Assembly (NCBI GenBank): GCA_963740275.1
Contig: CAVUDT010000002.1
Coordinates: 227,418-291,417 of the forward strand
Reading direction: 5' to 3'
Length of the DNA stretch: 64,000 bases
Source: an uncultured Acidobacteriota bacterium
GTDB lineage: Bacteria; Acidobacteriota; Vicinamibacteria; Vicinamibacterales; 2-12-FULL-66-21
Shown: piece by piece, positions 963 to 24,690 of the stretch
Position numbering within the stretch: the first letter of the stretch is position 1
How the letters are laid out: every line of letters begins with the position of its first letter
Translations under genes and position numbers: made by a program
Notes under the pieces: generated by a model
Told to the model about the DNA's origin: nothing
Seen by the model: the letters and a program-made list of their open reading frames with translations, nothing else
Databases searched by the model: none

Positions 963-3341
963 TCAGTCGGGCTTTCCGGGCTGATCGCGACGCGCTACCG
1001 GCGCACGCCACGACACCACGAACTGTCCATCCACGGGACCGGCGGCGAACTCCCGCCAGCCGAAGAGCCGGGCCATGCCCGACAGCAGCGCCAGCCCGCC
1101 GTATTTGCTGCCCGGCAGCGCCCGATCGTCGCGGCGATCGTTCCCGATCGTGAAGTGGACCTCTTTCGTGACCCGGTCGCAGCGGATGGTGACCCGCGGC
1201 ACCGATCCGGCCGCGCCGTGGCGCATCGCGTTGGCGAGGACTTCGGTCAGGAAGAACCCGAGGCCGCCGCGCACCGGCAAAGTGGTTTCGTATTCCTCCG
1301 TCCAGTCCACCGAGCTCTCGAACGGTGGGCCGCCGGCGCTTCCCGACAACGGACCGTTGGTCCACCCGAGACGCGAACGCAGGTCGCTGTCGCCGCGCAC
1401 CTCCCTGAAGATCCGCTCGAGCGAGCTGAGCGTTTCGTGAACCTGCGCCGCGTCGACGACCGAATCGTGCGGGGGTGGGGGCTCGTTCCAGTGATCCAGC
1501 AGCCAGCCGGTCACATGGATCCGGCGCTGGAGATACTCCGCCAGCCACGGGCTGACCGAACCCGGCGACTCGAGCCGTCCGACGCTGCGCCGCAGGACAT
1601 CGGCCAGCGCGTCCAGGCCGTGCGACAGCAGGCCGGCGAGCCGGCGCCGCTCGTCGGTATGCGCCGCCGCTTCGACGTCTTCGAGCAGCAGCCGCAGGTC
1701 CGACCGCGGATCGACGACGAACAGGATCGCCAGCCGGTGCCGCTCGTCGGCCGCCAGCGCCTCGATCGGCGCGGTCACCGCGACCGAGCGGACGATGGCG
1801 AACTGTTCCGAGACGTCACCGGCAGCGGTTTCGACCCGGATCGGGACGCCGTAGGCGCGCCGGGCTTCGCTCGTCGCCACCTGGGTCCGTTCGTAGTGTT
1901 CGCGGGCACGCGGGTCGGTCGAGATGCGGTCGGCGAATCGCGCGCCGCGCCTGATCCCCATCGATTCGGCGACCTGGTTCGCCGAGACGATCTCGTCGGT
2001 GTTCGGGTCGACCACGATCAGCGGTACCTGCATGGTGTTGAGCAGGTTCTGCTTCTCGCCAAGAGCGCGGGCGGCGCGGTCGGCCTCGCGCTCCGCCCGG
2101 CGGCGATTGACTTCGAAGCCGGTCAGCAGCAGCGCGAGCACGACGCCGAGGAGCGCGACCGGACCGGCCGGAAATGACGGGGCCACGCTCGGGAAGAACG
2201 CCAGCAGCCAGGCGCGTTCGGACACGTGGAAAGCCGCGACCGCACCGGCGTCCTGCACCACCGCGTGGCTGATGGGGGAGAGGGCGCCGCTCGCCGTCCC
2301 TTCCCCGTTCACCACACCGTCCAGGGCCGCGCGCAGGGTAGCGGGAGCTCCGTCAGACAGGGCGCCGCGCAAGGTGGTCCAGGTCGCCGGCCCATCTTCG
2401 CCGACATGGACGATGGTTGCGGCCAGCGGAGCCGCGATCGTGGATGCGAACCGGTCCCAGTCGACGTCATGCGAGAGATCGAGCGCGAGCACGCCCGCCT
2501 GTCCGCCGCCGTCCATCGGCATCGTCAACGTGGAGACGAGCCCGCGACCGCCGAGGTCGACATAGAACCCGGAGTAACGAATGGAGTCCTGCTCGCCGTC
2601 GGGGAAGCGGAAGAAGAACTCCTCGGGGGCGAATGACGGCAGCGTCGGCCGCGACGACAGCTGCAGCGCCTCGCTCCGGGCGGCGCCGTCGGCGGTGTCG
2701 GTGGCGGCCGGCCAGGGAAGCGAGACCAGCGTGCCATCCTCGGCCAGCGCGTAGAGCCGGACCGGACGCGCGATCCGCCGCAGTGCGCCGTCCAGCCGCG
2801 GCCGGGCCGCGGCCATCGGCGCCAGCAGCCGGGCGACGAAGCGGTTCGAGCCGGCGTCCTGCTCGAGCCCGCGGCGGCGGGTCACCACGAACGTCCCGCC
2901 CGGCGCGGTCAGCAGCGCGAGCGACCGCCGCGAGGGACCGGCCTGCGCCAGCGATGTCTGCGCCGGCATCGGGACTTCGTGCGACGGGGCGGCGACGACG
3001 GTGCGCATCGCGTCCGCCGCGGGCACGAGCTCGTGCGGAATCCGATCGGTCTCGTCGGCGAGCCGCTCGAATGTCAGCGCGTCGGAGGGCGGCAGATGGC
3101 GGCGATAGGCGGACATCTGCTCGCGCAGCCAGGCGATCGCGCCGGGGGCCTCGATCGGCCGCGATGGCATCCGCTGCTGGACCAGCGCGAACACCGCCGC
3201 CGTCCGCGCCTGGCCGGCGCGCTCCTGCCAGGCCGTCCAGACGCTGCGCGCGGTCAGCCCCGCCAGCAGCACGAACAGGGCGAGTCCCGCGTAGAGCAGG
3301 CCGACGCGGCGGGCGCGCGCGGGGGGTAGAGTAGTGCGCAT
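963..3341 (-). CDS. sensor histidine kinase (two TM helices bracketing a ~330-aa periplasmic sensor; cytoplasmic PAS-like region; H-box; HATPase_c)
   Basis: N-terminal TM VGLLYAGLALFVLLAGL, second TM VALLGVVLALLLTGF, H-box-like ERRRLAGLLSHGLDA. C-terminal ATPase motifs GFFLTEVLANAMRHG, TIGNDRRD, KYGGLALLSGMARLFGW. Confidence 0.8.
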   Translation of the reverse strand: MRTTLPPARARRVGLLYAGLALFVLLAGLTARSVWTAWQERAGQARTAAVFALVQQRMPSRPIEAPGAIAWLREQMSAYRRHLPPSDALTFERLADETDRIPHELVPAADAMRTVVAAPSHEVPMPAQTSLAQAGPSRRSLALLTAPGGTFVVTRRRGLEQDAGSNRFVARLLAPMAAARPRLDGALRRIARPVRLYALAEDGTLVSLPWPAATDTADGAARSEALQLSSRPTLPSFAPEEFFFRFPDGEQDSIRYSGFYVDLGGRGLVSTLTMPMDGGGQAGVLALDLSHDVDWDRFASTIAAPLAATIVHVGEDGPATWTTLRGALSDGAPATLRAALDGVVNGEGTASGALSPISHAVVQDAGAVAAFHVSERAWLLAFFPSVAPSFPAGPVALLGVVLALLLTGFEVNRRRAEREADRAARALGEKQNLLNTMQVPLIVVDPNTDEIVSANQVAESMGIRRGARFADRISTDPRAREHYERTQVATSEARRAYGVPIRVETAAGDVSEQFAIVRSVAVTAPIEALAADERHRLAILFVVDPRSDLRLLLEDVEAAAHTDERRRLAGLLSHGLDALADVLRRSVGRLESPGSVSPWLAEYLQRRIHVTGWLLDHWNEPPPPHDSVVDAAQVHETLSSLERIFREVRGDSDLRSRLGWTNGPLSGSAGGPPFESSVDWTEEYETTLPVRGGLGFFLTEVLANAMRHGAAGSVPRVTIRCDRVTKEVHFTIGNDRRDDRALPGSKYGGLALLSGMARLFGWREFAAGPVDGQFVVSWRAPVARRDQPGKPD

Positions 3342-4419
3342 GTCGTCGCCACCACCAGGCTTCGAACGGCGCCACGTGGTCTCGGTGGAGGATCACTTGT
3401 ACCACACCGCCGAGCTGCTCGAGACCATCGCCCGCACCGCGCCGGCGATGCTGTGGTCGACGACCGTTTGCGCGATCGACGATCCCGGCGCCGACACCAC
3501 GGCCGCCGTTGCCGGCTGGCTCCAGCGGTTCGAGGGGGTCCAGATCGCGGCGCGCGTCGATCCGCGCGACCTCCCGCCCGAGCACGCGGCGCGGCTGCTC
3601 GCCATCGATGCCGCGCAGCTCGCCGAGGTCTCGGCGTTCGCGAGAATGGTGGCCTCGCTGCTGCTCCCGGGCGGTGTGCTGCTGCAGGACGTGCACCTTT
3701 CCACTCTCCGCTGCATTCCCGCCGACCGCTGGTGGGAATCGATCTACGTGGCCGCGACGGTGCGCGGGATGTTCGCGCGGCGGCAGCCGGCCGTCCGCTT
3801 CGTGTCGAACAAGCGGGGCTACACGGCGACCTTCGGGCGCGACCTGCTCGACGCCGGCTTCGACCCGCGCGAGGTGATGGACAAGGGGGAGCTCGAGCAG
3901 GTGATCGTGCCGTCGATCGCCCGGGACGTCGACGAGCGATTCCCGCTCGAGCTCACCACTGCCGGCCGCGCCATGCCGATGCCGGTTGCCGCCGACGAGG
4001 AATCGAGGCGCGAGATCGAGGACCGGCTCGATCTCGTCGAGTGGGAAGTCAGCGGCCGGGTCGAGCTGGGCGGGCGCCTGCTCGACGCCCCGGTGACGTT
4101 CCGCACCGGCTCGAACGAGGGGCTCACCTGGCAGCAGCTGATCGCCGATCGTATCGGCGGCGGGCCGGGGGTTTCGGTGGCCGAGGTCGGCCAGCGCCTT
4201 GCCGAGGCCGGGGCCGAGCGCGCCGAGATCTCCAACCTGGCGGCGCGGCACGTCCATGCCCTGCGCGCCCGGCTCTCCAATCCCGGGGCGATCGTCACCG
4301 CCAACCGTGCCTACCGGCTGGTCGATGACGTCCTGGTCGGACAGGTCCGCCGGCGCCCCTCCGTGCTCCTCCGCCAGCCTCCGGTTTCCCCGGCGCGCGA
4401 ATCGGATCGACCGGCATAG
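3334..4419 (+). CDS. putative transcription regulator: C-terminal OmpR/PhoB-type winged helix (Trans_reg_C-like) with a non-canonical N-terminal receiver-like domain
   Basis: C-terminus ...LTWQQLIADRIG...ARHVHALRARLSNPGAIVTANRAYRLV matches the Trans_reg_C ending pattern (xVHIxxLRxKL...IxTVRGxGYRL). N-terminus VVSVEDHLYH lacks the canonical DD/D/T/K receiver residues. It is divergent from the HK with overlapping start codons (CATG at 3339-3342). Confidence 0.5.
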   Translation: MRMSSPPPGFERRHVVSVEDHLYHTAELLETIARTAPAMLWSTTVCAIDDPGADTTAAVAGWLQRFEGVQIAARVDPRDLPPEHAARLLAIDAAQLAEVSAFARMVASLLLPGGVLLQDVHLSTLRCIPADRWWESIYVAATVRGMFARRQPAVRFVSNKRGYTATFGRDLLDAGFDPREVMDKGELEQVIVPSIARDVDERFPLELTTAGRAMPMPVAADEESRREIEDRLDLVEWEVSGRVELGGRLLDAPVTFRTGSNEGLTWQQLIADRIGGGPGVSVAEVGQRLAEAGAERAEISNLAARHVHALRARLSNPGAIVTANRAYRLVDDVLVGQVRRRPSVLLRQPPVSPARESDRPA

Positions 4420-4453: not shown

Positions 4454-5935
4454 ATGTCGCTCTTCAGGACGAAGTCCATCGAGTCGCTCGCCGGCGGGGA
4501 ACACGGGGGTGGGCTGAAGCGGGTGCTGGGGCCGGCCAACCTGGTCTCGCTCGGCATCGGCGCGATCATCGGCACCGGCATCTTCGTGCTCACCGGCCAG
4601 GCAGCGGCCGCGCACGCGGGGCCGGCGATCGTCATCTCGATGATCCTCGCCGCCGTGGTCAGCGCGCTCGCCGGGCTGTGCTACGCCGAGTTCGCGTCCA
4701 CGGTTCCGATCGCCGGTTCCGCCTACACCTACTCGTATGCGACGCTCGGCGAGTTCGTCGCGTGGGTGATCGGGTGGGACCTCGTGCTCGAGTACGCGCT
4801 GGGCGCGGCAACGGTGGCGGTCGGGTGGTCCGGCTACTTCGTCAAGGCGCTCGCCGATGTCGGCATCTCGTTCCCCGCCGTCGTGAGCGCCGCCCCCGGC
4901 ACCGTCCTCGTCGGAGCGGATGGGAGCACGGTGACCGCGATCTTCAACCTGCCGGCGGTGCTGATCGCGGTCCTGGTGACCGCGCTGCTCGTCCGCGGTG
5001 TCCAGGAATCCGCCCGGGTCAACGGCGTGATGGTCGTGGTCAAGGTCGTCGTCGTCCTGCTGGTGATCGCCGCCGGCGTCTCGTTCGTGGACGCCGAGCG
5101 CTTCACGCCGCTGGTTCCGCCGAACACCGGCACGTTCGGGGAGTTCGGCTGGTCCGGGGTGATGCGCGGCGCGGCGGTGATCTTCTTCGCCTACATCGGC
5201 TTCGACGCCGTTTCGACCGCGGCCCAGGAAGCCCGGAACCCGCGCCGCGACATGCCGATCGGCATCCTGGGCTCGCTGGTGATCTGCACCGTTCTCTACA
5301 TCGCCGTGGCGGTGGTGATGATCGGCCTGGTGCCTTACGCCGAGCTCGGCGGGCCCGCACCGATCGCGGTCACCATCGACTACGCACGCGAAGCGGCCCG
5401 GGGAACGCCGCTCGAGGGACTGCTCCGGATGATGCCGCTGATCGTCAAGATCGGCATCCTCGCCGGGCTGACCTCGACGATGGTGGTGCAGATGATGGCG
5501 CAGCCGAGGATCTTCATGGCGATGTCGAAGGACGGCCTGCTGCCTCCCTGGATGGGACGGGTTCACCCGCGCTTCGGCACGCCGCATCTCACGACGATCG
5601 CGACCGGCGCGGTCGTCGCGATGGCGGCGGGGCTCACGCCGATCGATGTGCTCGGCCACATGGTGAGCATCGGCACGCTGTTCGCGTTCGTGGTGGTGTC
5701 GGGCGGCGTGCTGGTGCTGCGGCGAACTCACCCCGATCTCCCCCGGCCGTTCAGGGTTCCGTGGTCGCCGATCGTGCCGGCCCTGTCGGCGCTGGTGTCG
5801 CTGCTGCTGATGCTGAGCCTTCCGGGCGAGACCTGGACCAGGCTGGTGGTCTGGATGGGCATCGGCATCGCGATCTACTTCGCCTACGGCTACCGCCGCA
5901 GCCACGTGGGACGCGCCGAGTCAGAGGTGCCATAA
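4454..5935 (+). CDS. APC-superfamily amino acid permease (cationic amino-acid transporter-like), ~12 TM
   Basis: N-terminus MSLFRTKSIESLAGGEHGGGLKRVLGPANLVSLGIGAIIGTGIFVLTG is the typical APC signature region (GxGIF). The rest is hydrophobic. The longer ORF from 4199 is a low-complexity overextension. Confidence 0.85.
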   Translation: MSLFRTKSIESLAGGEHGGGLKRVLGPANLVSLGIGAIIGTGIFVLTGQAAAAHAGPAIVISMILAAVVSALAGLCYAEFASTVPIAGSAYTYSYATLGEFVAWVIGWDLVLEYALGAATVAVGWSGYFVKALADVGISFPAVVSAAPGTVLVGADGSTVTAIFNLPAVLIAVLVTALLVRGVQESARVNGVMVVVKVVVVLLVIAAGVSFVDAERFTPLVPPNTGTFGEFGWSGVMRGAAVIFFAYIGFDAVSTAAQEARNPRRDMPIGILGSLVICTVLYIAVAVVMIGLVPYAELGGPAPIAVTIDYAREAARGTPLEGLLRMMPLIVKIGILAGLTSTMVVQMMAQPRIFMAMSKDGLLPPWMGRVHPRFGTPHLTTIATGAVVAMAAGLTPIDVLGHMVSIGTLFAFVVVSGGVLVLRRTHPDLPRPFRVPWSPIVPALSALVSLLLMLSLPGETWTRLVVWMGIGIAIYFAYGYRRSHVGRAESEVP

Positions 5936-6723
5936 CCCGGCGCCGTCCTCGGCGAGTGGAGGATGCACATGCGTGGAGTGAATCGCGGTGCCGGGCTGGC
6001 TGCGATCGTAGCGCACGAATCTTTAGGTTCGTTTGCACGGCGTCTCTCCGCGCCGGCGACCTGCGGCCTGAATCTGATCACCCATTCGCTTCGGTCTGCG
6101 TGAGGTCCGTCCTCGGCGCGTCCGTTCCTCCGCATGAGACTTTTCTCTGGATTCAGAGTTGGCCGCGGGGAAGCGGATGCCACCTGGATGATCGAGCGCT
6201 AGACCGTCTTTCAGTTGCATCTGGTTGGCCGACGTGCGGCGGGTCCATGCCGCGCCTCCGCCGGTGGGATCGCCTCCGGACCGTTTTTCGAGCTGTCGCC
6301 GCGCGCTGTCCGCATTGCGCCGCGGTCCCGCCATGGACTCGCCGCAGACCGCCGGGGGTCGGGAGCGCGGCGGCGGAGGCACGTCAGGTCCCCGGCGCGA
6401 TGCGTCCAGCCCGCTGCTGCCCCGGGGTCTGTGACGGGGGCAGTCCCGAAAAATGCGCCGCAGGCGTCCCCATCCGGCGCGGGTGATTCGCCGCCGACGC
6501 GGCGGATCCCCCGAGCGCTGACCCTGATCATCGCCCAGCGTCGGGCCAGCCCCAGCCGCGACGGCAGCGTCAGGCACGCGCCGGAGGAGCATTTTTCCGG
6601 GCGTAGGACGAGGCGACGGGGAGCTGATGTGGCTCCGCCGCAGCGCGGTGCGCGGCACCCACGCGTCGGCAACTGCGGCGAGTCGACGGCGCGCATTGGG
6701 CGATCGGGTCGCTACAACGTTAG

Positions 6724-9700
6724 TTATGAAAAACGCTTTTTTAGCGGAGGCGGTCTCAACCGCCAGCCGGCCTGGCCGCTGGTGAGCTCTTTCAGGAAAT
6801 CCAGCGCCGCGCGCGCCGGCTTCGCGGCGGCCGGCGAGACGCGGGCGAAGTAAGGCGCAAGCACGAACTGCAGGTTGTCGTGGACCGAGCGCCACTGCGA
6901 GCCGCCCTGGGATCGCTTGAACACATCCTGAAACGCCCGTTCGATCGTTGGCAAGTCGCGGGCGAGATTCCCCTCTGCCAGTGCTTCGTAGAGTCCGAGC
7001 TCCGGCTCGGCGACCAGGCTCCAGAAGTCGGGATCGGTCCGGTTCTGTTCACGGGCGCTGCTGCGCGCTTCGGTGAGTAGCGCCGGATCGAGTCCTTTCC
7101 AGTTCCGGGTGCCCGCGTTGAGGGTGAGCTCGGCGGCGATCAGGTTCATCGCCGGGTAGAAGAGCGCCTTGTCGCCGCGGTCCCGGGCGATCTTCAGCGC
7201 TCGCCGGTAGTGGCGGGCCATCGCCGCAATTGCCTGCCGCGCCGCTGCCAGTCGGCCGTCGTCAGCTTCGAGCATCGCCAGCCGTTTCATCGCGGCGCCG
7301 CGAAGACTTTCCCGTTCGGGCGTTTCCTGGAACTCCGACAGCCGGGCGAGAACCTTCATCTGCTCCTTGATGATCGTCCGGGCAGACTGGGTTGCGGCGC
7401 GCACCCGCTCCACCGCCTCGCGGCGTTGCCGTGTCGCCCGCCGTCGTGCCGGCGCGCCGCGCTTCGCACCGCGACCGGCTTTGCCGGCCGCCGCCTGTTC
7501 GGCCTCCGCTCGCGCCACCCGGGCCGCCTGCACCGCCTGCCGGACCCGCAGATTGCTGGCCTGCTCCAGCATCCGGAACGAGACTTCACCTTCAGCGGCA
7601 CTCGTGGCGCTGTCGTACCACCGGACCGCGGCGTTCAGGTCGTCCGCCGCGGCGTACGCCCTGGCGAACAGCTCGGCCACCGGACCGGTTACCGGCCATC
7701 CCATCTTTTCCCAGCGTTGCTCGAGGTGGCCGAGACGACCGAGCTGGTAGGCCGGGTCGTACCCCTGGAAGGTGGACTGAACGATCAACGTCTCGAGCGC
7801 CTGCCGCAGCGACTCCTGCGATCCCACATCATCGAACTCTCCCTCGGGACCGGTCGACGACGTCCTGGCCCAGCCCGACTCCCGACGGAGCGTCCAGTCG
7901 GGATCCCCGTAGCACTGGTAGGCCGCCCAGGTATTGCCGCCGAAGCCTTCGAGCGCCTTCGTCCGCGCCTCGGACACGGCATCGATGAAGCGCCGGCCTC
8001 TGAGCAGCGCGTCGTAGAACGTGGTCGCGAAAGCGCTCGCCGCCTGGTCGTCCACCGCCCATCCGGCCGCGACGACGCACCGGACGCCGATGTCGATCAG
8101 CGCCTGGGCGACGCTCGACGCGAACGCCGAGCGATCGTAGGCCCTGGGTTGCGGCGGGCCCTCGCGCAGCACCGAACCGCTCAACGGGGCGGCGAGGTGA
8201 CAGCAGTTGACGAAGACGAGCTCGGGAACGACCCGCATCGCCTTGATTTCGGCGGCGCCGAGAAACGTGTCGTTCGAGAGGACCACGCCGCCGCGGTTCT
8301 CCTTGACGTCGATCGGTTCGCCGTGGCCGGCGACGTGGACCACGCGCCAGCTGCGTTCGAACAGCGCGTCCACGACCTGGCGCGCCTCCGGGCCGCTCTG
8401 CAGCTGGCCGCCGGCAAACAGGTCCTTGATCGAGTCGCGGCTGATGCCGCGCTCGGCCAGCAGGCCGCAGACGTCGGTCGCTTCGCGCAGCGCACCCGGC
8501 AGCGGCGGATATCCCGGCGGACAGGCCGGTTCGCCGATGACCAGGAATGAGCCGTCGGTGTCGGCGTCGCTGACCTGTGCCCGGAACGTTTCCGTCCGGA
8601 ACTTCCGCAGCAGCTTGGAGCGGATCGCCCACGGCGCCCGTAGCGACTGCGTGGTGGCGGTATCGTCGAGCAGCTCCCACGGGATGCCGGCGGTGCCTTC
8701 GTCGACCTCGATCTGCGTCTCCCCCGAGCCGGCGAGGAACGCTTCCAGCTCGATCGGGACCAGCAGGTTGTAAAGGCTGCGGCCGATCTGCGGATCGTCG
8801 TTCAGCTCGCTCGATGCGGTGGCGACCAGGTCGCGCAGCAGCCGGGCCTGGGTCGCCTGCGCGCGGACCTCGGTGCGCGCCCGCCGGGTGTCGAGCGCGT
8901 AGGCGATGAAGCTCTGGCCGTTGACGTCCTGCCGGGTCTCGGCGGTGATGAAGTCGTACTCGGCGCCGCGATAGCCGGATTGCGCCGGTCGCCGCAGCGC
9001 GCCGACCCCCTCCATGATCGGTTCGGCCACGCGGTAGCGCCTCGGGTTCGCCTGGGCCTGCATCTTCAGCGCTTCCCACGCCTCGGTGGCCCGGTTCAGA
9101 TACAGCTCGACGAAACGAAGCTCGCGCACTTCGGGCAGCCGCTGTCCGTTAGCGGACGATCGCCGAATCAGGTCGTTGGCCTCGTGCACGCCCTGGGCGA
9201 TCAGCTGTGCCGCCTGTCCCGGGGTCATGCCGGCGCCGCCGCTGCCGAGCAGCGTCGCGGCGATCGACAGCGTGGCCTGACGGCCGCCGCGCTCCCTGAC
9301 CCGTTCCGACCAGGCGATCGCCGCCTGGCGGACCGAGTGGATGGTGTGCGCCGACTGCAGCTTGCCTTCCTGCCCGAGGCCGGCGACGATCACCGCCTCC
9401 GGCCGCGGCGTCTGCCAGAACTTCCCCTTCTGGACCTTGCGATTGATGAAGATGCGGTGGCTGCCGGGCTCGACCGGGTAGACCCCCAGCGCGAGCGCGC
9501 TCGACATCGCGCGATCGAGCAGGCCATCGATGACCCGTTCCGTGCCGGTGAGCCGGGTCGAGCGATAGTGCCCGACCATCAGCGCGCGGTCCTCGAACGT
9601 CAGGTCGCCGTTGATCACCGCGATCTCGAGAGCGGGCGCGAGGTCGGCCGCTACCGTGGGCGCCGCGTGCGCGATCGCCCGCGCGCGCCGGACGGACTGG

Positions 9701-11249
9701 CCCGGGACGGCGGCGGCGAGGCCGGCGGCGGCCGCTGCCGGTGCGCCGGCACGGATCAGACGACGGTCCGGCAAGGTCTGCGACGGATCGAGCGCGCGCA
9801 ACTGGTGGGGCTGATCGCTGAGCGCGGCGACGAGAAACGCGACCGTCTCCGGCTGGGCAAAGAAATTGACGTGGGTCACGTCATTGCGGTCGATGTTGCC
9901 GCCCGGACCGAAGCATCCGATCCGTGATCCGGGAATGAAGGCGCCGCCCGACGGATCGACCCGCCATCCCCCCGCCGACGGCACGACCAGGTCGTTGGCC
10001 GTGTTGAAGAACTGGTCGACGCCGGTGTCGAGCAGCCGCTGCAGCACGGTGGCATTCGGGCTGTAGTTCGCCGCCAGTGCGAAGTAGCGGTCGGGCGGTG
10101 GTCCCGGCGGGGCCTGGAGCTCACGAATGAGGTCACCGTCGCCGTCCATCGAGTGCAGGCCGGGCAGGTCGCCCGACGCATGGCGGGCGATCCACACCAG
10201 ACCGTTCGCCACGAACTCGGCGCCGGTGGTGAAGGGGTTGTCCGGAAACAGCTCGAGCAGGTTCGCCACCCAGCCGACGGTGTCCTCCCAGCGTTGCGGC
10301 GTCGCCAGCGGCGTCCCTTCGTTGGGGGACGCCACCAGCACGGCGCGGCCCAGGGCGAAACGCGAGGCGAGCGCGTCGAACGCCTGCTGCCGTTCGACGA
10401 GGTTCCTCAACACCAGCCCGCCCCGCGAGTGGGTGATGACATCGAAGGTGAACGTCTTCTTCGGCAGTCCTTCGAGCAGCATCCGCGCGTTCTCTTCCGG
10501 CGTCCGGCTGATCGAGAAATGGTCGAACGCGAAGATGCGATCGCCGTAGAGCGGCGCCACTGCTTCGAAGAAGTTCGACGCGGCCAGGGGACCGAATGCG
10601 CTGGCGGCGTTCGAGAAGGTGCCGTGAATCAGCAGCAGCGACCGCTCGGTTGACGACGGCTTGCCGGGCGGCGAGGATGCCGGCGGCGAGCGTCTCCTTG
10701 TTGACCCTGAGCCAGGCCTCCTGCAGCCCTCGCGACTTCCACACGCTGGTCTCGAACATCCGGGCCAGCTTCGGCAGCACGAAACCGGCGGCGCTGTCGA
10801 CCACGCCGCCGGCGACCTTGACCACGATCGACCTTGACCGCCTTGCTGACGAAGCCGCGGCTGGTCGCGAGATCGGCGCCACCCTCCGCCCGGCGAACCG
10901 GGGCGACGAACCGGACTTCGACCGGACCGCCGCGGGTCCGGCCGACGGCCGTCCGCGGTCCGTGGAAGGTCAGCGCACCCGACGGGTAGCGCAGCACCAG
11001 CACGGCGGCCTCTCCCGGAGGGAGCTCGGCGCTGATGTCGAGAGTGGCTGGGGTGGGGCCCACTCCATGGGTGCGCGTTTCGCGCGTGCCCGCTCCGCGG
11101 ACCGGCGGCTTCGGGATCGCGACGAACTCTTCGGTTCCAATCGCGTGGGTCAGGAATTCGGGTGGCAGCCCGGGCATCGCCGCTTCGCGGCCACGCGTCG
11201 TCGCAGTCCTCTGGAGATCCCATCCCGGCGAGTTCAGTTTGACGGCCAT
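6724..11249 (-). CDS. ~1,500-aa multidomain protein: unknown N-terminal domain, alpha/beta-hydrolase (esterase/lipase-like), middle domain, CHAT caspase-like protease domain, and a C-terminal TPR-like helical domain. The reading frame is disrupted twice near the 5' end.
   Basis: Hydrolase: LLLIHGTFSN...FDVITHSRGGLV (nucleophile-elbow variant). CHAT: RVVHVAGHGEP...ELVFVNCCHLA...VRCVVAAGWAVDD (His/Cys dyad). C-terminal 400 aa is alpha-helical repeat. Start ATG 11249 has a GAGG SD. Frame changes at ~10830 (16-bp tandem duplication gaccttgacc...) and ~10665 (1-nt indel in gccgcccggc). All three frames read as sensible peptide across the junctions. Confidence 0.7.
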
Positions 11250-11266
11250 GTAACCTCTACGGCGGC

Positions 11267-13218
11267 TTGCGGAAGCCTATATCGTTTTGCGCAGCCCGTC
11301 AGCCGTCCACGCCCGGCACAATCCCGGCCGAACCTGACTATGATGAGCGCGTGCCCGCGCTGCTCATCGCCGCCCTGATCGGCCTCATCGTCCAGCAGCA
11401 GCCGACGTTCCGCAGCCGCGTCGAGCTGATTCGCCTCGACGTCGGGGTGGTCGACAAGGACGGCCGGCCCGTCCGCGATCTGCGGGCCGAAGACTTCGTG
11501 GTGCGGGTCGACGGCGCCGAGCGGCGCGTTTCCTTCGCGCACTTCTACGGAGCGGATGACGGGCCCCGCGCCGTGCAGGGCGATGCGCCGGTCGCGGTCG
11601 CCTCGAACGCGAGCGCCGTCCCCGGTCGCGTCGTCGTCCTGGTGGCCGATCTCGAGAGCGTCACCCAGGGTTACGAGAAGCCGATCTTCGATACCGCCGC
11701 AGGTCTCATCGACCGGCTGGCACCGTCGGACGCGGTCGGCCTGCTTGCCCTCAACGGGCGCAGCGTGGAGCTGACGCGGGACCATCGGAAGGTACGGGAA
11801 GCACTCGAGGGTCTGCGCGGATTTGCCTCGTCACCGACGTTTCGCTACCGGATGTCGGTCCGCGAGGCGGAAGCGTTCCGGAGCCGGCGACACCCGGATC
11901 ATCGGGGAAGTGGTCGAGCGAGAGTGCCGGGCCAGCGACACCATGTGCCCGCGGGAGCTGCGGGACCAGGCGATGCCGCTGCTGATCGAGGCCGACCGCC
12001 GGACCCAGGTGCTGGTGACCGCTCTCACTTCGCTGTTCGAGCGCCTCGAACCGATCGACGCGCCGAAGAGCGTCGTGCTGCTGTCAGGCGGCCTGCAGCG
12101 CCGGCAGGGCAGTGCCGGATGGTTCTCGGACCTGGAGCGGCGATCGCGGTCGGCCGGGATCTCGATGTCGATCGTCCAGATCGAGCAGGCCGAGAACGAC
12201 GCGTCCCGCCGCGGGCCCGGCGGAACGCCGCCGCGCGCCGATCTGACCGACGGCCTGTCCGCGATCGCCGGAGCGACAGACGCCGCGATGTATTACGGCA
12301 TCGCGTCGGGCGACGGGCGCGTTCGACCGTATCCGCAGCGAGATCGTCAATTCGTACCAGCTTGGCGTCGAGAGCCTGCCGTCGGACGCCGGCGATCGCA
12401 AGCACCGGTTGACGGTCGAGGTCAGGCGCAACGGCGTGACGGTGCGGGCGCGCAAGGAGATTGTCGTGTCGAGCACGCCGCGGGCCGCGTCCAACCCGGT
12501 CGACCTGCTGGCCCAACCGATCGATTTCACCGAGCTGCCGCTCACCGTCGCCACCTTCACCACGCGCGGCGAGGAGCCGTCCACCTTGAAGGTCATCGTG
12601 CTCGTGGAGGTCAGCGCCGGCGCTGCCGAAGCCGCCGGAGGCAGCTATGCCTTCTCAATCGCCGCGGCGCCTGCGAAGCCGGTGTTCGAGACGGCGGACC
12701 GGCTTGCCGCCGGTTCGCCGGCTTCCGCTGTGGCGGCGCAGATCCCGCCGGGCCGTTACCGGCTGCGCGCGGCCGCCGTTGATACCGCCGGCCGGCAGGG
12801 CTCGCTCGACATGCCGATCGTGGTTGGGCTGCGGCAGGTTGGCGCGCTGCAGTTCAGCGATCTCATTGTCGGACGGCTCGAGGGGGCGTTCACGCCGGCC
12901 ACGCGCGTACCGCCAGGGGTCCCGCTCGTGTCGGTCCTCGAGCTGTACAGCGCGGACCCGTCTCAGCTCGAAGGGCTCGACGTGTCGGTGGAGCTGCGAC
13001 GCGCCGGTGGGACCACGGAGCCGACGCTGGTGCCGGCGGAAGTGCGCAAGACGAGTCTCGACCGACGGCGGATCGCCAACGCGAACATTCCGGCCACGTC
13101 CCTCGCCTCCGGCACATGGCTCATCTCGGCGGTCGTGCGGCGAGGCAGCGAGGTCCTGGGTCAGGTAACCCGCGGCATTTCCGTCAGCCCCCCAGTTGGC
13201 GGGGATCAGCTCAAGTGA
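11267..13218 (+). CDS. VWA-domain protein of the acidobacterial TIGR03436-like family (~650 aa), frame-disrupted at ~11885 and ~12323
   Basis: N-terminus ...LIVQQQPTFRSRVELIRLDVGVVDKDGRPVRDLRAEDFVVRVDG parallels the two downstream paralogs (LRSGVELVSLNVSV...). Three consecutive ORF pieces (11267-, 11823-, 12409-13218) each read sensibly and join by 1-nt shifts. The start is uncertain (TTG 11267 or GTG 11351). Confidence 0.6.
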
Positions 13219-17271: not shown

Positions 17272-18260
<989 letters not shown>

Positions 18261-18277
<17 letters not shown>

Positions 18278-19806
18278 GACCCGGCGGCAGATCCCTGAAG
18301 TGATCGACCAGCGCATCGACGAGATCCGGGATGGTATAGCGCTGCGGCTGCACCGTGGTGACGATCCCGAGCTGTTGCGCGGCTTCGGCGGTGACCGGCC
18401 CGATCGACGCGACCACGGTGCTGCGCAGCAGGTCGGCGGCCTGTTCCTGCCCGTGGATCTGGGCGAAATTGCGGACCGTGGAGGCGCTGGTGAACGTCAC
18501 GGCGTCGATGCGCCCGTCGAGCAGCATCCGGTAGATGTCGACGCCCCCGCCTGGATCCGCCGGGGCCAGCGTCGTGCGGTAGGCCACGACGTCGGTGACC
18601 TCGGTGCCGGCGGTGCGGAGTTCGTCGAGCAGCGTGTCACGGGCGATGTCGGCGCGCGGGAGGAGGACGCGCTTCCCCCGCAGCGGGCCGGCGGTCCGCA
18701 GCGAGTCCATCAGGGCCTCGGCCCGGAACTCCGGCGGCGTCAGGTCGGCGCGGATTCCGTAGCGCAGCAGCCGGGACGCGGTCGACGGTCCAACCGTGCA
18801 GATCTTCACGTCCTTCAGCTGGCGCACGTCGGCCACCGAGGTCAGCCGCGACATGAAGCTGTCGACCGCGTTGCCGCTGGTGAAGATGATCCAGTCGAAC
18901 GAGGAGGCGTCGGCGACCGCCTGGTCGAGCGGTGCGGGGTCCTCGGGTGCAGCGATCCGGATGGTCGGCGCCGGGATCGCTTCCGCTCCCCGTTCCTCGA
19001 GCATCTCGATCAGCTCCCCGGCCTGTTCGCGCGAGCGGGTCACCACGATGCGCCGCCCGAAGAGCGGCCGGTCGTCGAACCAGCGGAGATGTTCGCGCAA
19101 TGCGGCCACCCGTCCGATGACGAACACCGCCGGCAGATCGACCCGCGCATCCGCCGCAATGGTCGCGAGCGTGCCGGTCACGGTCTGCTGTCTTGCGGTC
19201 GTGACGTTGTAGACGAGGGCGGCGGGCTCCTCCGGCGGACGGCCGTGAGCCACCAGCGCCGACGCGATCGCGCCGATCTGGCGGGCGCCGGCGTAACAGA
19301 CGATGGTGCCGCCGAGGCTGCCGAGGCCGCTCCAGTTGACGTCCGGCGCCTCTTCCGATTCCCCCTCGTGCCCCCGCACGAAGGTCAGCACGTCGTCGGC
19401 CCCCGGGTAGGTGAGCGGGATGCCGGCGTAGGCGGCGCCGCCGATCGCCGCTGGAATGCCGGGCACGATCTCGAACGCGGATGCCCTGCTCCCGGAGCAG
19501 CAGCGCTTCCTTCCCGCCGCTGTCGAACACGAACGGGTCTCCCCACTTCAACCGAACGACCGATTTGCCCTCGCGCACCTTTTCCGCGAGCAGGATGCTG
19601 ATCGCCTCCTGGTCCATCGATCGCGGCGCCGCCGGGCCGACGTCGATCCGTTCCGCCCCCGGACGGGCGGCCCGCAGGAGCGCCGCCGGCACCTGGTGGT
19701 CGTAGACGACGACGTCGGTGGTCTCGAGCAAAGCCCGTCCACGGACGCTGATCAGCGACGGGTCGCCCGGGCCGGTTCCGACGATGTAGACGCAGAGTGG
19801 TGTCAT
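18261..19806 (-). CDS. cobA-hemD: uroporphyrinogen-III C-methyltransferase fused to uroporphyrinogen-III synthase; frame shift near 19474
   Basis: N-terminus VYIVGTGPGDPSLISVRGRALLETTDVVVYD (SUMT). ...FEIVPGIPAAIGGAAYAGIPLTY. The C-terminal half RRIVVTRSREQAGELIEMLEERGAEAI...FDWIIFTSGNAV is the HemD fold. Confidence 0.75.
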
Positions 19807-20745
19807 GAATTCAGCAGTTCCCGGGCGCCGCGTGACGCCAGCTCCCGACCGAGCCGCGTCCCGGCCCCGGCCGGGTCGCCCGGCTCTCCCGTGATCGCCG
19901 CTTCGATGATTTCCGTGCCGTCCGGCGACGCGGCGATCGCCCGGACGAGCAGCTCGCCGGACTGTATTTCAGCGAAGGCGCCGAGCGGCAGCTGACAGCC
20001 GCCACCGAGCTCCTCGACGACCGCCTGCTCGGCGGCCAGCGCCGCGCGTGCCGGAGCGTCGTTCACCCGTGCCAGCAGTTCGAGGATCTCGCCGTCCGCC
20101 GCGCGCGCCTCGATTGCGATGATGCCCTGTCCGGGGGCGGGCACGCAGTCGGTCACCGCCACCGCGGCGGTGATGCGATCGGCGAGGCCGAGGCGCCGCA
20201 GACCCGCACAGGCGAGGATCAGGGCGTCCACGGTCCCGCCATCGAGCTTGCGAAGGCGCGTGTCAACGTTACCGCGGATCGGCTCGAAGCGGGCGTCGGG
20301 AAACATCCGCCGGAATTGTGCGACCCGCCGGGGGCTGCCGGACCCTATCAGGGACAGAGGGTGCGGGGGGTGCGCACACGGGGTGCGGGGGGTGCGACGT
20401 GGACAACCCGTCGTGCGGGGGGTGCGGAAGGACCAGGGCGTCGCGTGGGTCTTCCCGCGGCAGCACGGCGCCGATGGTCAGGCCGGCGGGGGAGACGGCG
20501 GGCATGTCCTTGGCGCTGTGGACGGCGAGGTCGATCGTTCGGGCGAGCAGCGCTTCGTGGATCTCCTTGACGAACACGCCCTTGCCGCCGATCGCGGCGA
20601 GGGGGGCGTCCTGCTGGCGGTCGCCGCCGGTGGTGATCGTGACCAGCTCGGTCTCGACCCCGGCCTCGCTCAGCGCCGCCGCGACGGCCCGCGCCTGCCA
20701 GAGCGCCAGCGGGCTGCCCCGGGTGCCGATGCGCAGCGCCCTCAC
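19803..20745 (-). CDS. hemC: hydroxymethylbilane synthase (porphobilinogen deaminase), interrupted by a 52-nt repeat insertion that shifts the frame
   Basis: N-terminus [18 protein letters not shown]...[15 protein letters not shown]...[11 protein letters not shown]...[10 protein letters not shown]-terminus [40 protein letters not shown] start overlaps the hemA stop (GTGA). Confidence 0.8.
20362..20413. repeat. 52-nt insertion made of extra copies of a G-rich 14-mer (GTGCGGGGGGTGCG on the + strand) inside hemC
   Basis: Three copies of cgcaccccccgcac on the coding strand. Removing 20362-20413 restores [21 protein letters not shown] in one frame. Confidence 0.6.
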
Positions 20746-22061
20746 GGCTCCGTCCGCGGCGGCGGCCCGGGAGCGGTCTCGTCCGCCGGTGCGGGAGAGG
20801 GGAGGCTGAACAGCCGATTGAGCACATCCGAGTAGGTCGCCGCGAGCGAATTGTCGCTCAGCGCCTTGAGCTGTTCGGTCGGCGTGAGCAGCAGTTTCTC
20901 GACGATCAGCCTGGTGATGTGGTCGACCTGCGCCTGCGCGTCGGGGGGCAGCGCACTGAGCTTGGGCTGAAGCCGCTGCAGTTCCGCGCGCCGGATCGAC
21001 TCGAACCGCTCGCGCAGCGCGACCACCGTCAGGATGATCTCCCTCGACTGGAGCCAGGCGGCGAACTTGGCGGTTTCGACGTCGATGATCGCGTCGGCCT
21101 GGTCCAGCTCGGCGCTGCGGCGGGCGAGGTTCTCGCGGACGATCCCCTGAAGGTCGTCGATGTTGTAGAGAAAGACCTGCTCGATGCGCCCGGCCTCCGG
21201 CTCGACGTCGCGGGGCACCGCGATGTCGATGATGAACAGCGCCCGCTCGCGACGCGACTTCATCGCCGCGTCGATGTCGGCCCGCGAAAGGATGGCCGCC
21301 GGTGCGCCGGTCGCGGTCACCAGGATGTCGGCGCGGCCGATGGCGCCCTCGATCTCGCTCCAGTCCACCACCTCCGCCGACAGTTCGGCGCTGAGCCGCT
21401 CGGCGGCGGCGCGGGTGCGGCTGGCGATCGCGATCTGCCGGACATGCTGCGCCCGCAGGTGGACGGCGGTCAGCTTGGCCATCTCCCCGGCCCCGAGGAT
21501 CAAGACGCTGAGACCCTGCAGGTCGCCGAAGATCTTGCGGGCCAGGGCAATCGCCGCGTAGCTGACCGACACTGCCCCTTCGCCCAGGCCGGTTTCCGAG
21601 CGGACGCGCTTGGCGGCGGCGAACGCGAGGTGGAACAGCCGGTTCAACACCGTCCCGGTGCACCGCGCCTCGCTGGCGATGGTGTAGGCGGATTTCACCT
21701 GGCCGAGGATCTGCGGCTCGCCGACGACCAGCGAGTCGAGGCCGGCGGCGACCCGGAACAGGTGGCGGGCGACGTCGGCGCCGTGGTGCACGTACAGGTG
21801 CGGCGAGAGCTGATCGAGCGGCACGTCGTGGTACTCGGCGAAGAACGCGAACAGCTCGTCGATCGCGCGATCGGTGGGCGCCGCCACGTAGACTTCGGCG
21901 CGATTGCAGGTCGAGAGCACCGCCATCTCGCGGGCGATGTTGCGGGCGGCCAGCCCCTCGAGCGCCGCGGCGACCCCGGCGCGCGCGAAATCCACCTGCT
22001 CGCGCAGCTCGATCGGCGCGGTCCGGTGGCTCAACCCGACCGCGTAGAGACGCATCGTCAA
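20742..22061 (-). CDS. hemA: glutamyl-tRNA reductase
   Basis: [21 protein letters not shown]...[10 protein letters not shown]...[10 protein letters not shown]...; intact 439 aa. Confidence 0.9.
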
Positions 22062-22877: not shown

Positions 22878-23795
22878 TCAGGGAGCCGTCGGCCCGTAGT
22901 AGCCCTGGCGGGTGCGTGCGAGCAAGCCCGGCCGCGCCAGCCGGACGACGATCCGCCGCCACGCCCCGTTCCGGGAAGGATTGCGCGAGGAATACGCGAC
23001 CGAGTACAGCGTCGACAGCTCCTGCGAGATCTGCTCGTAGATCTTCGGCAGCTCGTGGACGCTGGTCGGGAAGAACGAGCGTCCTCCAGTCTCCTGCGCC
23101 AGCTGCTTCAGCACGTATTCCGCTTCCTTGAAGCTGGCGCGGCCGGTCTCGCGCTGCTCGCGCAGACCGATGGTGTAGATCGCCGTTTCGGAGCGCTTCG
23201 CCAGGTCGAGCACTTCCTCGTACGGCAGCAGGCTCGAGGTGTCGTCCCCGTCCGAGAGCACGACGATGGCCTGGCGGCGGATCTCGTCCTCGGTCCGGGC
23301 CTTGATCTTCTTCAACTCCTTGAGCGAGATGTAGATCGCGTTGTAGAGCGCGGTCGAGCCGTCGGCGCGGGTGCTGCGGATCGCTTTTTCCAGCTCCGCG
23401 GCGTTGTTGGTGAATCCCTGGAGGATCCGAACCTGGCTGCTGAAGTCGATCACCTCGGCGACGTCGTCCTGCTGCAGCCGCTTGGCGAAGCCGACCGCCG
23501 CCTCCTGCGCGGTCGCCATCTTGTCTTCCATGCTGTTGCTGGTGTCGAGCAGGACGGCGAGCGCGATCGGCTGCTGCTTGCGCGAGTAGAACGTGATGTT
23601 CTGCCGGGCGCCATCTTCGAATACCTCGAAGTCCGCCTGCTCGAGGTCGGTGATGTACTTGCCGCCGCCATCGGTGACCGAGACGTTCAGCGAAACGAGC
23701 TCGACCCCCGACCGCAGCTTGGGCGGCTGCTGCTGCTGTGCGGCAAGCCCCGCCCCCACGCATGCGGCGGCGACGGCAGCGATGGCGAGGCGCAT
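22878..23795 (-). CDS. VWA-domain protein, acidobacterial TIGR03436-like family
   Basis: Signal peptide, then LRSGVELVSLNVSVTDGGGKYITDLEQADFEVFEDG..., then VWA MIDAS-like LLDTSNSM. Confidence 0.75.
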   Translation of the reverse strand: MRLAIAAVAAACVGAGLAAQQQQPPKLRSGVELVSLNVSVTDGGGKYITDLEQADFEVFEDGARQNITFYSRKQQPIALAVLLDTSNSMEDKMATAQEAAVGFAKRLQQDDVAEVIDFSSQVRILQGFTNNAAELEKAIRSTRADGSTALYNAIYISLKELKKIKARTEDEIRRQAIVVLSDGDDTSSLLPYEEVLDLAKRSETAIYTIGLREQRETGRASFKEAEYVLKQLAQETGGRSFFPTSVHELPKIYEQISQELSTLYSVAYSSRNPSRNGAWRRIVVRLARPGLLARTRQGYYGPTAP

Positions 23796-23799
23796 GGCT

Positions 23800-24690
23800 C
23801 TATTTGCCTTTCAAGCGGGTCCGGGCACGTGCCGTCAGGCCCGGTTTCTTGACCGATACCTGGACCTTCTCAGGGGGAATCAACGCATCAGGACGGCCGT
23901 AGGTCACCACGTACTGGTTCAGCAGTTCACCGGCCAGCCGATTCAGCGTCTCAGGTATCGCCATCTCGGACAGCAGCTGGTCACGCCGGCCGCCGGTCGC
24001 TTCGGTGCCCTCGGCGACGACCATGTTCTTGTTGCGGATCTCGTCGGACCGGTCGGCGTTCGGCGTGCCGATCGACAGCACGTGCAGGGTGGCGCCGCTG
24101 GCGTAGAGGTCCTCGAGCACCCGCTCGTACTGGGAGTTGCTGAACTCGACCGCTTCCATCGAGAGGGCCACGATCACCGGGCGCTTGGCCTCGCGCATCT
24201 TGAACCCGCGGCTCACTTCCACGATCGCTTCGAGCAGGTAGGCACCCGATCCGGGACGCGCGAAGATGCGGGTCGCCGCCTTTTTCAGGGCCGCGACGTC
24301 GGTGGTGCGCTCGGCGATCGAGGTCGGACGCTCGCCGATCGTTACCATCCCGATCGCGGCCTTGCCCTGGAGCTTGTCGATGAACTGGTTCAACCCGTCC
24401 CGCAGGTGAGGGATGGCGCGGGTCGCGGCCTGGCTGTCGTCGATCAGCAGCACGACGTCGAGCGGCTCGGTCGCCGGCTGGGCTCTCAGCACTTCCCGCG
24501 TGACGCCGTCTTCGCGAACGGTGAAATCGGCCGCCGACAGGCCGGTCGCGGCCACGCCCTTCGAGTCGACAACGCTGACGTAGATCTCACGGGTCTTGCC
24601 GTCGGTCGCCTGCGGCGGCTGCGCTCCGAGGGTGGCGCCCGCCGCCGCAAGAATGGCGGTAAGCGCAAGTAAAGACAGGGTCTTCTTCAT
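23800..24690 (-). CDS. VWA-domain protein, acidobacterial TIGR03436-like family
   Basis: MKKTLSLLALTAILAAAGATLGAQ signal; ...REIYVSVVDSKG...; VLLIDDSQA. Start ATG 24690 with GAGG SD. The longer ORF to 24801 is an overextension. Confidence 0.75.
   Translation of the reverse strand: MKKTLSLLALTAILAAAGATLGAQPPQATDGKTREIYVSVVDSKGVAATGLSAADFTVREDGVTREVLRAQPATEPLDVVLLIDDSQAATRAIPHLRDGLNQFIDKLQGKAAIGMVTIGERPTSIAERTTDVAALKKAATRIFARPGSGAYLLEAIVEVSRGFKMREAKRPVIVALSMEAVEFSNSQYERVLEDLYASGATLHVLSIGTPNADRSDEIRNKNMVVAEGTEATGGRRDQLLSEMAIPETLNRLAGELLNQYVVTYGRPDALIPPEKVQVSVKKPGLTARARTRLKGK

Follow-up and report, generated by a model that had tools for sequence, protein, structure and literature searches.

A five-module CHAT protease and hydrolase protein of an uncultured Acidobacteriota bacterium as a candidate effector of Thoeris-like TIR signalling

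A large minus-strand gene in the 64,000-nucleotide stretch of DNA analysed here (the window; positions 227,418 to 291,417 of contig CAVUDT010000002.1, assembly GCA_963740275.1, uncultured Acidobacteriota bacterium) encodes a cytoplasmic protein of five modules: a beta-sandwich, a PlaB-like hydrolase, a macro fold, a CHAT protease and a helical domain of TPR-S type. The protein is a candidate effector of an immune or abortive-infection pathway with Thoeris-like TIR signalling, a reading to which we give a probability of roughly 0.55. The gene itself is real. By profile its product is a true CHAT protease and DUF7379 hydrolase; it carries a macro domain by fold and not by sequence, and ends in a TPR-S-type C-terminus. 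The features of the gene are as follows.

6756 to 11249, minus strand: whole gene; corrected coding sequence of 1,496 amino acids after three single-nucleotide insertions are dropped
11254 to 11257, minus strand: GAGG ribosome-binding site, 4 nucleotides 5' of the ATG at 11249, by direct sequence reading
10667 to 11249, minus strand: N-terminal domain, a beta-sandwich of about 110 amino acids followed by a strand/helix connector; spans two frames owing to frame break 1
10829 to 10832 (about 10831), minus strand: frame break 1, one surplus nucleotide in 'gtcg'; junction 10833/10828 between high-scoring segment pairs (HSPs), alignment A1
10666 to 10668, minus strand: frame break 2, one surplus C in a CCC run; HSP junction 10667/10665
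9814 to 10656, minus strand: alpha/beta-hydrolase (DUF7379), PlaB/lipase-like; Pfam DUF7379 at 1.9e-42 and motifs
9640 to 9813, minus strand: Ala/Pro/Arg-rich linker, predicted to be disordered; predicted local distance difference test (pLDDT) below 50 at residues 480-525 of model 2
9037 to 9639, minus strand: divergent macro-fold domain, predicted; motifs NG(D/N), GHY, GLGxEG and SGG
8788 to 9036, minus strand: bridge from macro to CHAT, beta-rich and helical; secondary structure of model 1, residues 256-338
7903 to 8787, minus strand: CHAT caspase-like protease domain; Pfam CHAT PF12770 and catalytic motifs
6759 to 7824, minus strand: C-terminal all-helical TPR-S-type domain; helices only, pLDDT above 90
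6779, minus strand: frame break 3, a surplus G; from a blastn comparison with contig L001 (98% identical) and from the C-terminus of P0001

As assembled, the longest open reading frame (ORF) runs from 6724 to 11223 on the minus strand and would encode 1499 amino acids, the initial 190 or so of which are a low-complexity translation in the wrong frame; direct reading of the sequence places the true start codon at the ATG at 11249. With the three insertions taken out, the corrected reading contains no stop codon. Searches with the repaired protein returned 805 matches to an uncharacterised family, the best full-length relatives being 1,460-1,530 amino acids long and 50-71% identical. Because these relatives cover 97-100% of the query, the N-terminal domain is real and conserved, and in the alignment it is shared by all full-length homologs. 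It has no Pfam match and falls in no known family. In the 69%-identical homolog P0028 it is modelled as a beta-sandwich with seven strands at residues 10-107, a block with pLDDT mostly of 58-89 (AF2).

Most of the architecture had been recognised by an initial annotation made from the letters and an ORF list, which reported a minus-strand gene with its own GAGG site and four segments, namely an N-terminus of no family, a hydrolase, a CHAT domain and TPR-like helices. All four are found and the N-terminus indeed matches no Pfam family; the beginning of that segment was however taken from the wrong-frame translation, and a fifth segment, the macro fold at residues of about 520-800, was missed. 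Structure models, which it had proposed for the N-terminus and for residues of about 520-1000, predict the beta-sandwich in the former and the macro fold, bridge and CHAT domain in the latter.

Two AlphaFold models were built from 115-sequence alignments, model 1 covering the window protein from residue 479 or so to the end (pLDDT 84.6, predicted template modelling score, pTM, 0.73) and model 2 covering residues 1-1200 of P0028 (pLDDT 78.0). The module order is beta-sandwich, connector, alpha/beta-hydrolase, disordered linker, mixed alpha/beta domain, beta-rich bridge, CHAT and all-helical C-terminus; in the two models, residues modelled with confidence belong to the beta-sandwich, to the hydrolase, macro or CHAT domain, to the helical domain or to disordered linkers.

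For the hydrolase, the DUF7379 profile match and an alpha/beta-hydrolase fold agree, with a fold match to PlaB. LLLIHGTFSN (10638-10609, containing HGTFS) and ITHSRGG (10437-10417), the motifs on which the segment had first been called, both lie inside the profile match, and the nucleophile elbow THSRGG has its Ser codon at 10428-10426. A candidate Asp is found in NDLVVP (9996-9979) and a candidate His in VTHVNF (9879-9862). These residues probably form a Ser-Asp-His triad, the Asp and His being picked by order and conservation, not by superposition. HGTFS, THSRGG, NDLVVP and THV are invariant or nearly so in alignments of 16 and 115 sequences, as are all catalytic-motif residues of the protein, a check that had been proposed with the first reading of the gene. 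The domain is a putative phospholipase or lipase of PlaB-like type, and in relatives of about 1,900 amino acids the hydrolase region also matches LCAT and PGAP1. Legionella pneumophila PlaB shares 13% identity with the domain and carries its nucleophile in an unusual THSTG motif (10.1101/2020.09.01.246603) in place of THSRGG; this virulence factor is exposed on the cell surface, has a C-terminal beta-sandwich of a different kind and lacks protease, macro and TPR modules. The linker that follows the hydrolase holds the motif LPDRRLIR (9774-9751, minus strand), in which L, P, R, L and R are invariant in 16 sequences. LPDRRL(I/L)R is missing from relatives of about 960 amino acids, which are without the lipase. 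LPDRRLxR may be a cleavage, pseudo-substrate or autoinhibitory site.

The macro fold was assigned from structural matches of the predicted model, and the region contains the glycine-rich, family-invariant motifs GLGxEG, SGG and GHY. On the strength of the modelled fold, the domain may sense a ligand that is a nucleotide or derives from ADP-ribose, and it points to an NAD+/ADP-ribose-derived signal rather than to direct sensing of a protein. The CHAT domain is matched by Pfam at 2.9e-27 (96.3 bits against a cut-off of 24, ORF residues 813-1107), and the two motifs named in the first reading lie within that match: the His in HVAGHG (8337-8320, codon 8325-8323) and the Cys-Cys in FVNCCH (8214-8197, codons 8205-8200). 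The AGHG His and the NCCH Cys are invariant in 115 sequences. Fold matches to separase, Csx29 and SAVED-CHAT place the domain in the caspase/separase-like fold, and a profile of the whole protein run against solved structures gave a single marginal match, to a metacaspase (E 0.86). The TPR-like C-terminus is borne out by a domain of about 360 amino acids that is entirely helical in model 1, with Foldseek TPR matches to LGN. Pfam TPR-S (PF20308) scores 24.6 bits in the window protein, below the cut-off of 27.6, and 35.7, 29.9 and 29.5 bits in relatives L051, L030 and L015, above it; precomputed Pfam lists give PF20308 for many homologs, with weak scores where these are shown.

The genes that lie next to family members are the second line of evidence. 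Flanking ORFs from 75 loci were clustered with crude ORF and GC3 filters, several of the flanks being truncated. Peptidase_C14 genes occur at 30 of these loci, a TIR cluster (TIR_2 family) at 16 and a TPR-S cluster at 11, with at least one of the three at 40. Some of these partners overlap the end of the family gene by 4 nucleotides or adjoin it upstream on the same strand, and TIR genes overlap that end (d=-3) in L028, L035 and L082. These three partner families turn up repeatedly, across three size classes and several phyla. Clusters 0-8 and 12 of the 25 were annotated; they include SDR, C14, TIR, TPR-S and PhoX, half of the ten have no Pfam match, and none is Cas-like. Among homologs of the window class, six of the eight Pfam-annotated contexts hold conflict-type genes: Peptidase_C14 in two, C14 with two TIR genes in one, a TPR-S protein with a cyclase-AAA_16 protein, and TIR with PLD, a MoxR-like AAA protein, an integrase and IS91. 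A dense island, L090 (the contig of P0021, 67% identical), has LSDAT_prok, CAP12-PCTIR_TIR, Peptidase_C14, TPR-S, Patatin and TIR_2, two of these being TIR genes, inside 10 kb. Free-standing TPR-S neighbours are found in L022 (4789-6666), L004 (7835-9823) and L090 (13236-14492), and the L022 protein is a TIR-TPR-S fusion, as its N-terminus is TIR-like (PADLOC PDLC00733, 2e-8). BLASTP of the window C-terminal domain against these neighbouring TIR-TPR-S proteins gave no match, and their kinship holds only at the level of the Pfam profile. Since about half of the homolog loci carry adjoining TIR, C14 or TPR-S genes, the family looks like one component, the effector, of multi-gene TIR-type systems. 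The proposal of a self-contained, single-polypeptide device, made in the initial annotation, is not borne out by these loci.

Conflict systems built from TIR and TPR-S proteins were reportedly predicted by Burroughs and Aravind (J Bacteriol 2020), and the C-terminal TPR-S-type domain, the TPR-S neighbours and at least one TIR-TPR-S fusion are points of likeness to them. The likeness to Thoeris lies in a TIR neighbour at the level of the family together with an effector that combines a caspase-family protease with a macro fold and a TPR-type domain; for every one of these features one type offers a precedent. In type II the Macro domain senses His-ADPR, in type IV TIR-made N7-cADPR activates a caspase-like protease, and in type VIII the proposal is that ThsI, a TPR-containing effector, uses its TPR domain to sense cADPR (10.64898/2025.12.03.692087). 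The survey's passage on type VIII says that a TPR of the ThsI kind was predicted by Burroughs and Aravind to act in TIR signalling (10.64898/2025.12.03.692087). PCaspase, in turn, is processed by SAVED-CHAT (10.1101/2024.10.24.620036). For each step of the following scheme, Thoeris types II, IV and VIII and SAVED-CHAT provide published precedents. Upon infection a TIR protein would turn NAD+ into an ADP-ribose-derived signal, which would be bound by the macro-like domain, the TPR-S domain or both, and binding would switch on the CHAT protease. The target of CHAT could be a neighbouring caspase zymogen, by analogy with the action of SAVED-CHAT on PCaspase. Possibly CHAT would also cut its own LPDRRLxR linker, freeing the phospholipase onto the membrane, so that the cell is killed or arrested. 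The window copy, with no partners in the 64 kb, would rely on partners encoded elsewhere or act alone. That all of this forms one new pathway, in which a TIR messenger acts through the divergent macro domain on CHAT and from there on both a C14 cascade and a self-cut linker that releases a PlaB-like phospholipase, is a tentative proposal that we hold to be rather improbable as a whole.

No described Thoeris type combines all of these modules. A CHAT domain stands here in place of the ThsE caspase, and no resemblance in sequence of the macro domain here to Pfam macro families or PDB structures could be detected. A TIR gene adjoining the effector, as expected of a Thoeris-type system, is absent from the 64-kb window and present in part at the level of the family, at the 16 of 75 loci with TIR-cluster neighbours. 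In its text and supplements, the survey of 29 Thoeris types contains no CHAT, PF12770, PF20308 or PF24096 (10.64898/2025.12.03.692087). Our literature search on DUF7379, on TPR-S with CHAT and on the architecture found nothing, and the 2020 article by Burroughs and Aravind, which possibly lists TIR/TPR-S/caspase assemblies, lay outside that search.

The remaining known systems differ further. SAVED-CHAT, the protease that turns on PCaspase during type III-B CRISPR signalling, has a SAVED domain and CRISPR or CD-NTase partners that this protein lacks; here a macro fold and TPR-S are the candidate sensors, a phospholipase-like domain and a beta-sandwich stand at the N-terminus, and TIR would be the maker of the signal. 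The PADLOC SAVED_CHAT match covers residues 927-1091 (E 5e-6), that is, the CHAT part only, with no SAVED fusion. In Csx29, the TPR-CHAT protease of Craspase (type III-E CRISPR), the helical repeats are N-terminal and here they are C-terminal, the hydrolase and macro domains are extra, and among the annotated neighbour clusters there is no Cas7-11/gRAMP partner, which places the protein outside that group. The analogy to Avs/STAND proteins that had been drawn earlier fails, as these have a central NTPase and no NTPase domain was found in Pfam, NCBIfam or PADLOC scans of the window protein. Assignment to a known defence family was rejected, PADLOC giving the weak CHAT-part match and NCBIfam nothing.

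Several of these results weigh against a Thoeris-like role. The lack of an assignment to a known defence family, just described, is one. At about 35 of the 75 loci, TIR, C14 and TPR-S genes are all absent inside 7 kb, and a tblastn search of the 64-kb window with every neighbour protein of the TIR, C14 and TPR-S families gave no match, so that the window copy is solitary. Many of the 75 loci belong to related Burkholderiales, and the neighbour counts are thus not counts of independent events. The macro assignment comes from predicted structure only, the region having no Pfam match and its family profile retrieving nothing relevant among PDB sequences, and the Asp of its NGD motif is replaced by Asn in proteobacterial members. 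The pTM of model 2, 0.45, leaves the geometry between domains uncertain. Genome-wide decay, if it were the cause of the frame breaks described below, would count on the same side, and it is far less likely than assembly error.

The solitary window copy and the many loci without partners are also what speaks for an autonomous sensor-effector of one chain, in which TPR-S, the macro domain or both sense a phage or stress cue directly, CHAT and the lipase act in cis without any need of partners, and the TIR and caspase neighbours are mere co-resident genes of a defence island. One chain does hold every module for sensing and killing, and the order and orientation of neighbour genes vary. Co-residence in islands alone can however hardly account for the recurrence of three partner families or for the overlapping gene ends, and the macro fold suggests that the signal is a small molecule such as TIR enzymes make; we judge this alternative unlikely.

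The distribution of the family bears on whether it belongs to conflict at all. At least 481 loci were confirmed in species-representative genomes, and the matches listed include Acidobacteriota, Bradyrhizobium, Gemmatimonadota and many Burkholderiales (Hydrogenophaga, Rubrivivax, Piscinibacter, Paraburkholderia, Ralstonia and Variovorax), with two copies in one metagenome-assembled genome (MAG). Three size classes exist: one of about 1,500 amino acids, to which the window protein belongs, one of about 1,900 with a hydrolase insert, and one of about 960. Because the last holds the macro, CHAT and TPR-S modules only, these form the conserved core. The macro-like domain alone has 1,168 cluster representatives (50% identity) at E <= 1e-3 and 183 at E <= 1e-30. 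Distant relatives with macro and CHAT domains are found on plasmids, and one of them lies between a recombinase, a DNA methyltransferase, a Fic protein and insertion sequence (IS) elements. No synteny is shared among the eight annotated contexts and the 75 loci, nor with the window, and a housekeeping or core-gene reading, the outcome that core synteny would have indicated, was rejected on that ground. The family is horizontally spread, patchy and multi-phylum. The conflict or defence role first proposed for the gene fits this spread, the absence of synteny, the plasmid, integrase and IS contexts and the TIR, C14, TPR-S, patatin and LSDAT neighbours. The closest relative in the genome collection, L011 (CAVVYL010000060.1, 70% identity), is labelled 'uncultured Acidimicrobiia' (MFD MAG); all other close relatives are Acidobacteriota, and L011 may have been wrongly binned or labelled, or its gene may have been transferred recently.

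Alternatively, the protein could be a regulated protease and lipase of non-immune function, such as a factor that soil bacteria use in stress, development or envelope remodelling, with the macro domain reading NAD+/ADP-ribose status and the TIR and caspase neighbours forming a circuit of programmed cell death or kin conflict instead of phage defence. Some homologs do sit among ordinary metabolic genes, and family members are frequent in Acidobacteriota and Burkholderiales of large genome size. There are also precedents, as PlaB is regulated by NAD(H) and is not anti-phage, and the CHAT protein DdvA is an anti-sigma factor. Such a role is hard to reconcile with a family that shows neither conserved synteny nor the pattern of a core gene, that has paralogs, plasmid and IS/integrase contexts and dense TIR/patatin/LSDAT islands, and for which neither a sigma-factor partner nor a transmembrane segment was noted. 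We consider it improbable, somewhat more so than autonomous action, and retain the Thoeris-like effector as the preferred reading.

The reading frame of the window copy is broken in three places, and the evidence points to errors in the sequence. In tblastn, the N-termini of five homologs each gave three contiguous HSPs in three frames, with query residues 1-129 at 11249-10833, 129/130-184 at 10834/10828-10667 and 185-330 at 10665-10228. Because no query residue is lost at either junction, each N-terminal break must be a single surplus nucleotide. At the second break, where homologs read L.A-GKPSS, the one-nucleotide indel suspected in the initial annotation turns out to be the surplus C of the CCC run. 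Near the first, the 16-bp tandem duplication that had been proposed as a lesion is a real direct repeat with a 16-bp period (GGTCAAGGTCG at 10838-10828 and again at 10822-10812) and is not the lesion: it encodes SK.VKAV.VKVAG, a VK.V repeat common to all 15 aligned homologs. TRF did not call the repeat at 10838-10812 as tandem. Deletion of 16 bp would leave five residues fewer than in every homolog and was discarded, whereas removal of one nucleotide restores the full match; taking one base from 'gtcg' at 10832-10829 yields SKAVKAIVVKVAG, the same as in P0003. The third break exchanges the true C-terminus, ...ELTTARPAGG with its stop at 6758-6756, for a longer wrong-frame end, ...ELTSGQAGWRLRPPPLKKRFS, with its stop at 6726-6724. 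The contig L001/P0001, a 98%-identical sequence from an independent assembly, is intact over the 1,075 amino acids that it covers, short of both N-terminal breaks, and is without the insertion at 6779.

A Viterbi segmentation of the whole window by codon usage recovered both N-terminal breaks and found about 15-17 same-strand frame switches with no stop nearby, or about one per 4 kb. The positions of the switches are approximately 272, 433, 11880, 12309, 15327, 17653, 19477, 30171, 40150, 40426, 41314, 41626, 43672, 54720 and 61187. Independent profile matches bear out several of the switches. In hemB the ALAD profile is matched in two frames, at positions 2-192 and at positions 196-316 (break at 17653/17654), hemC is split at Porphobil_deam positions 102/131, the TIGR03436 match of the neighbouring acidobact_VWFA gene is limited to profile positions 1-141 of 324 before the frame changes, and a GDSL lipase gene is likewise split. 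The haem-biosynthesis cluster spans 17273-22058 (minus strand), with the split hemB, a hemD/cobA-like gene at 18280-19810 (minus strand; frame switch at 19477), hemC in two parts at 19811-20313 and 20429-20799, and a hemA-like gene at 20800-22058. As the breaks hit essential haem-synthesis genes of a free-living, high-GC bacterium, assembly errors are far likelier than decay, and the window sequence suggests an indel-rich assembly, possibly from long reads. The three frame breaks are therefore most likely assembly indel errors, and the gene is probably intact in the organism.

The initial annotation had seen in these lesions a toxic gene in the course of inactivation, and since frame breaks occur window-wide, housekeeping genes included, that idea has no specific support. 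A genuine pseudogene, a toxic effector frameshifted in this lineage, would account for three +1 insertions of which just one lies in a homopolymer, and for partner genes that were lost or never present. The same kind of break in hemB, hemC, the hemD/cobA-like gene, VWFA and the GDSL lipase, the stop-free corrected reading in which every family-invariant catalytic-motif residue is kept, and the intact 98%-identical contig make it very improbable. The breaks are a signal of sequence quality and not of biology, and ORF-based readings of this contig need frameshift-aware translation that allows for about one indel per 1.5-4 kb.

The immediate surroundings are as first described, the gene being convergent with an amino-acid permease and divergent from the acidobact_VWFA gene (TIGR03436). 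Between the permease and the CHAT gene lies, at 5919-6763, the longest non-coding segment of the window by codon-model segmentation (about 0.8 kb), in agreement with the large gap noted beside the gene. An Rfam scan of the whole window gave no match, so that no RNA was found in the 5.9-6.76 kb gap, and neither a promoter-like nor a terminator-like site was found there. Relative to contig L001 this segment has several indels (6729, 6591, 6585, 6481 and 6420). Just past the permease lies a divergent pair, a gene for 781 amino acids at 1009-3355 (minus strand), the C-terminus of which looks sensor-kinase-like by eye, and one for 339 amino acids at 3356-4376 (plus strand), with no Pfam match. The divergent VWA neighbour (11267-13218, plus strand) runs through three frames, and its TIGR03436 match points to an Acidobacteriota origin; tandem VWA-like genes at 22885-23803 and 23804-24668 (both minus strand) resemble it by eye alone.

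Interest in the window copy is tempered by its solitary position and by the error-rich sequence in which it lies, and cultured carriers of the family exist in Hydrogenophaga taeniospiralis NBRC 102512, Paraburkholderia spp., Ralstonia pickettii and Bradyrhizobium tropiciagri. If the Thoeris-like reading is true, the family would be a new effector class in TIR immunity, in which the sensing of a nucleotide signal by a macro fold would be joined to a CHAT/caspase cascade and to a membrane-attacking lipase. Under the full pathway tentatively proposed above, a single effector would unite three death mechanisms that have so far been seen in separate systems only. The link from signal to cascade and lipase would parallel both the TIR-caspase wiring of cell death in eukaryotes and the SAVED-CHAT/PCaspase cascade of CRISPR.

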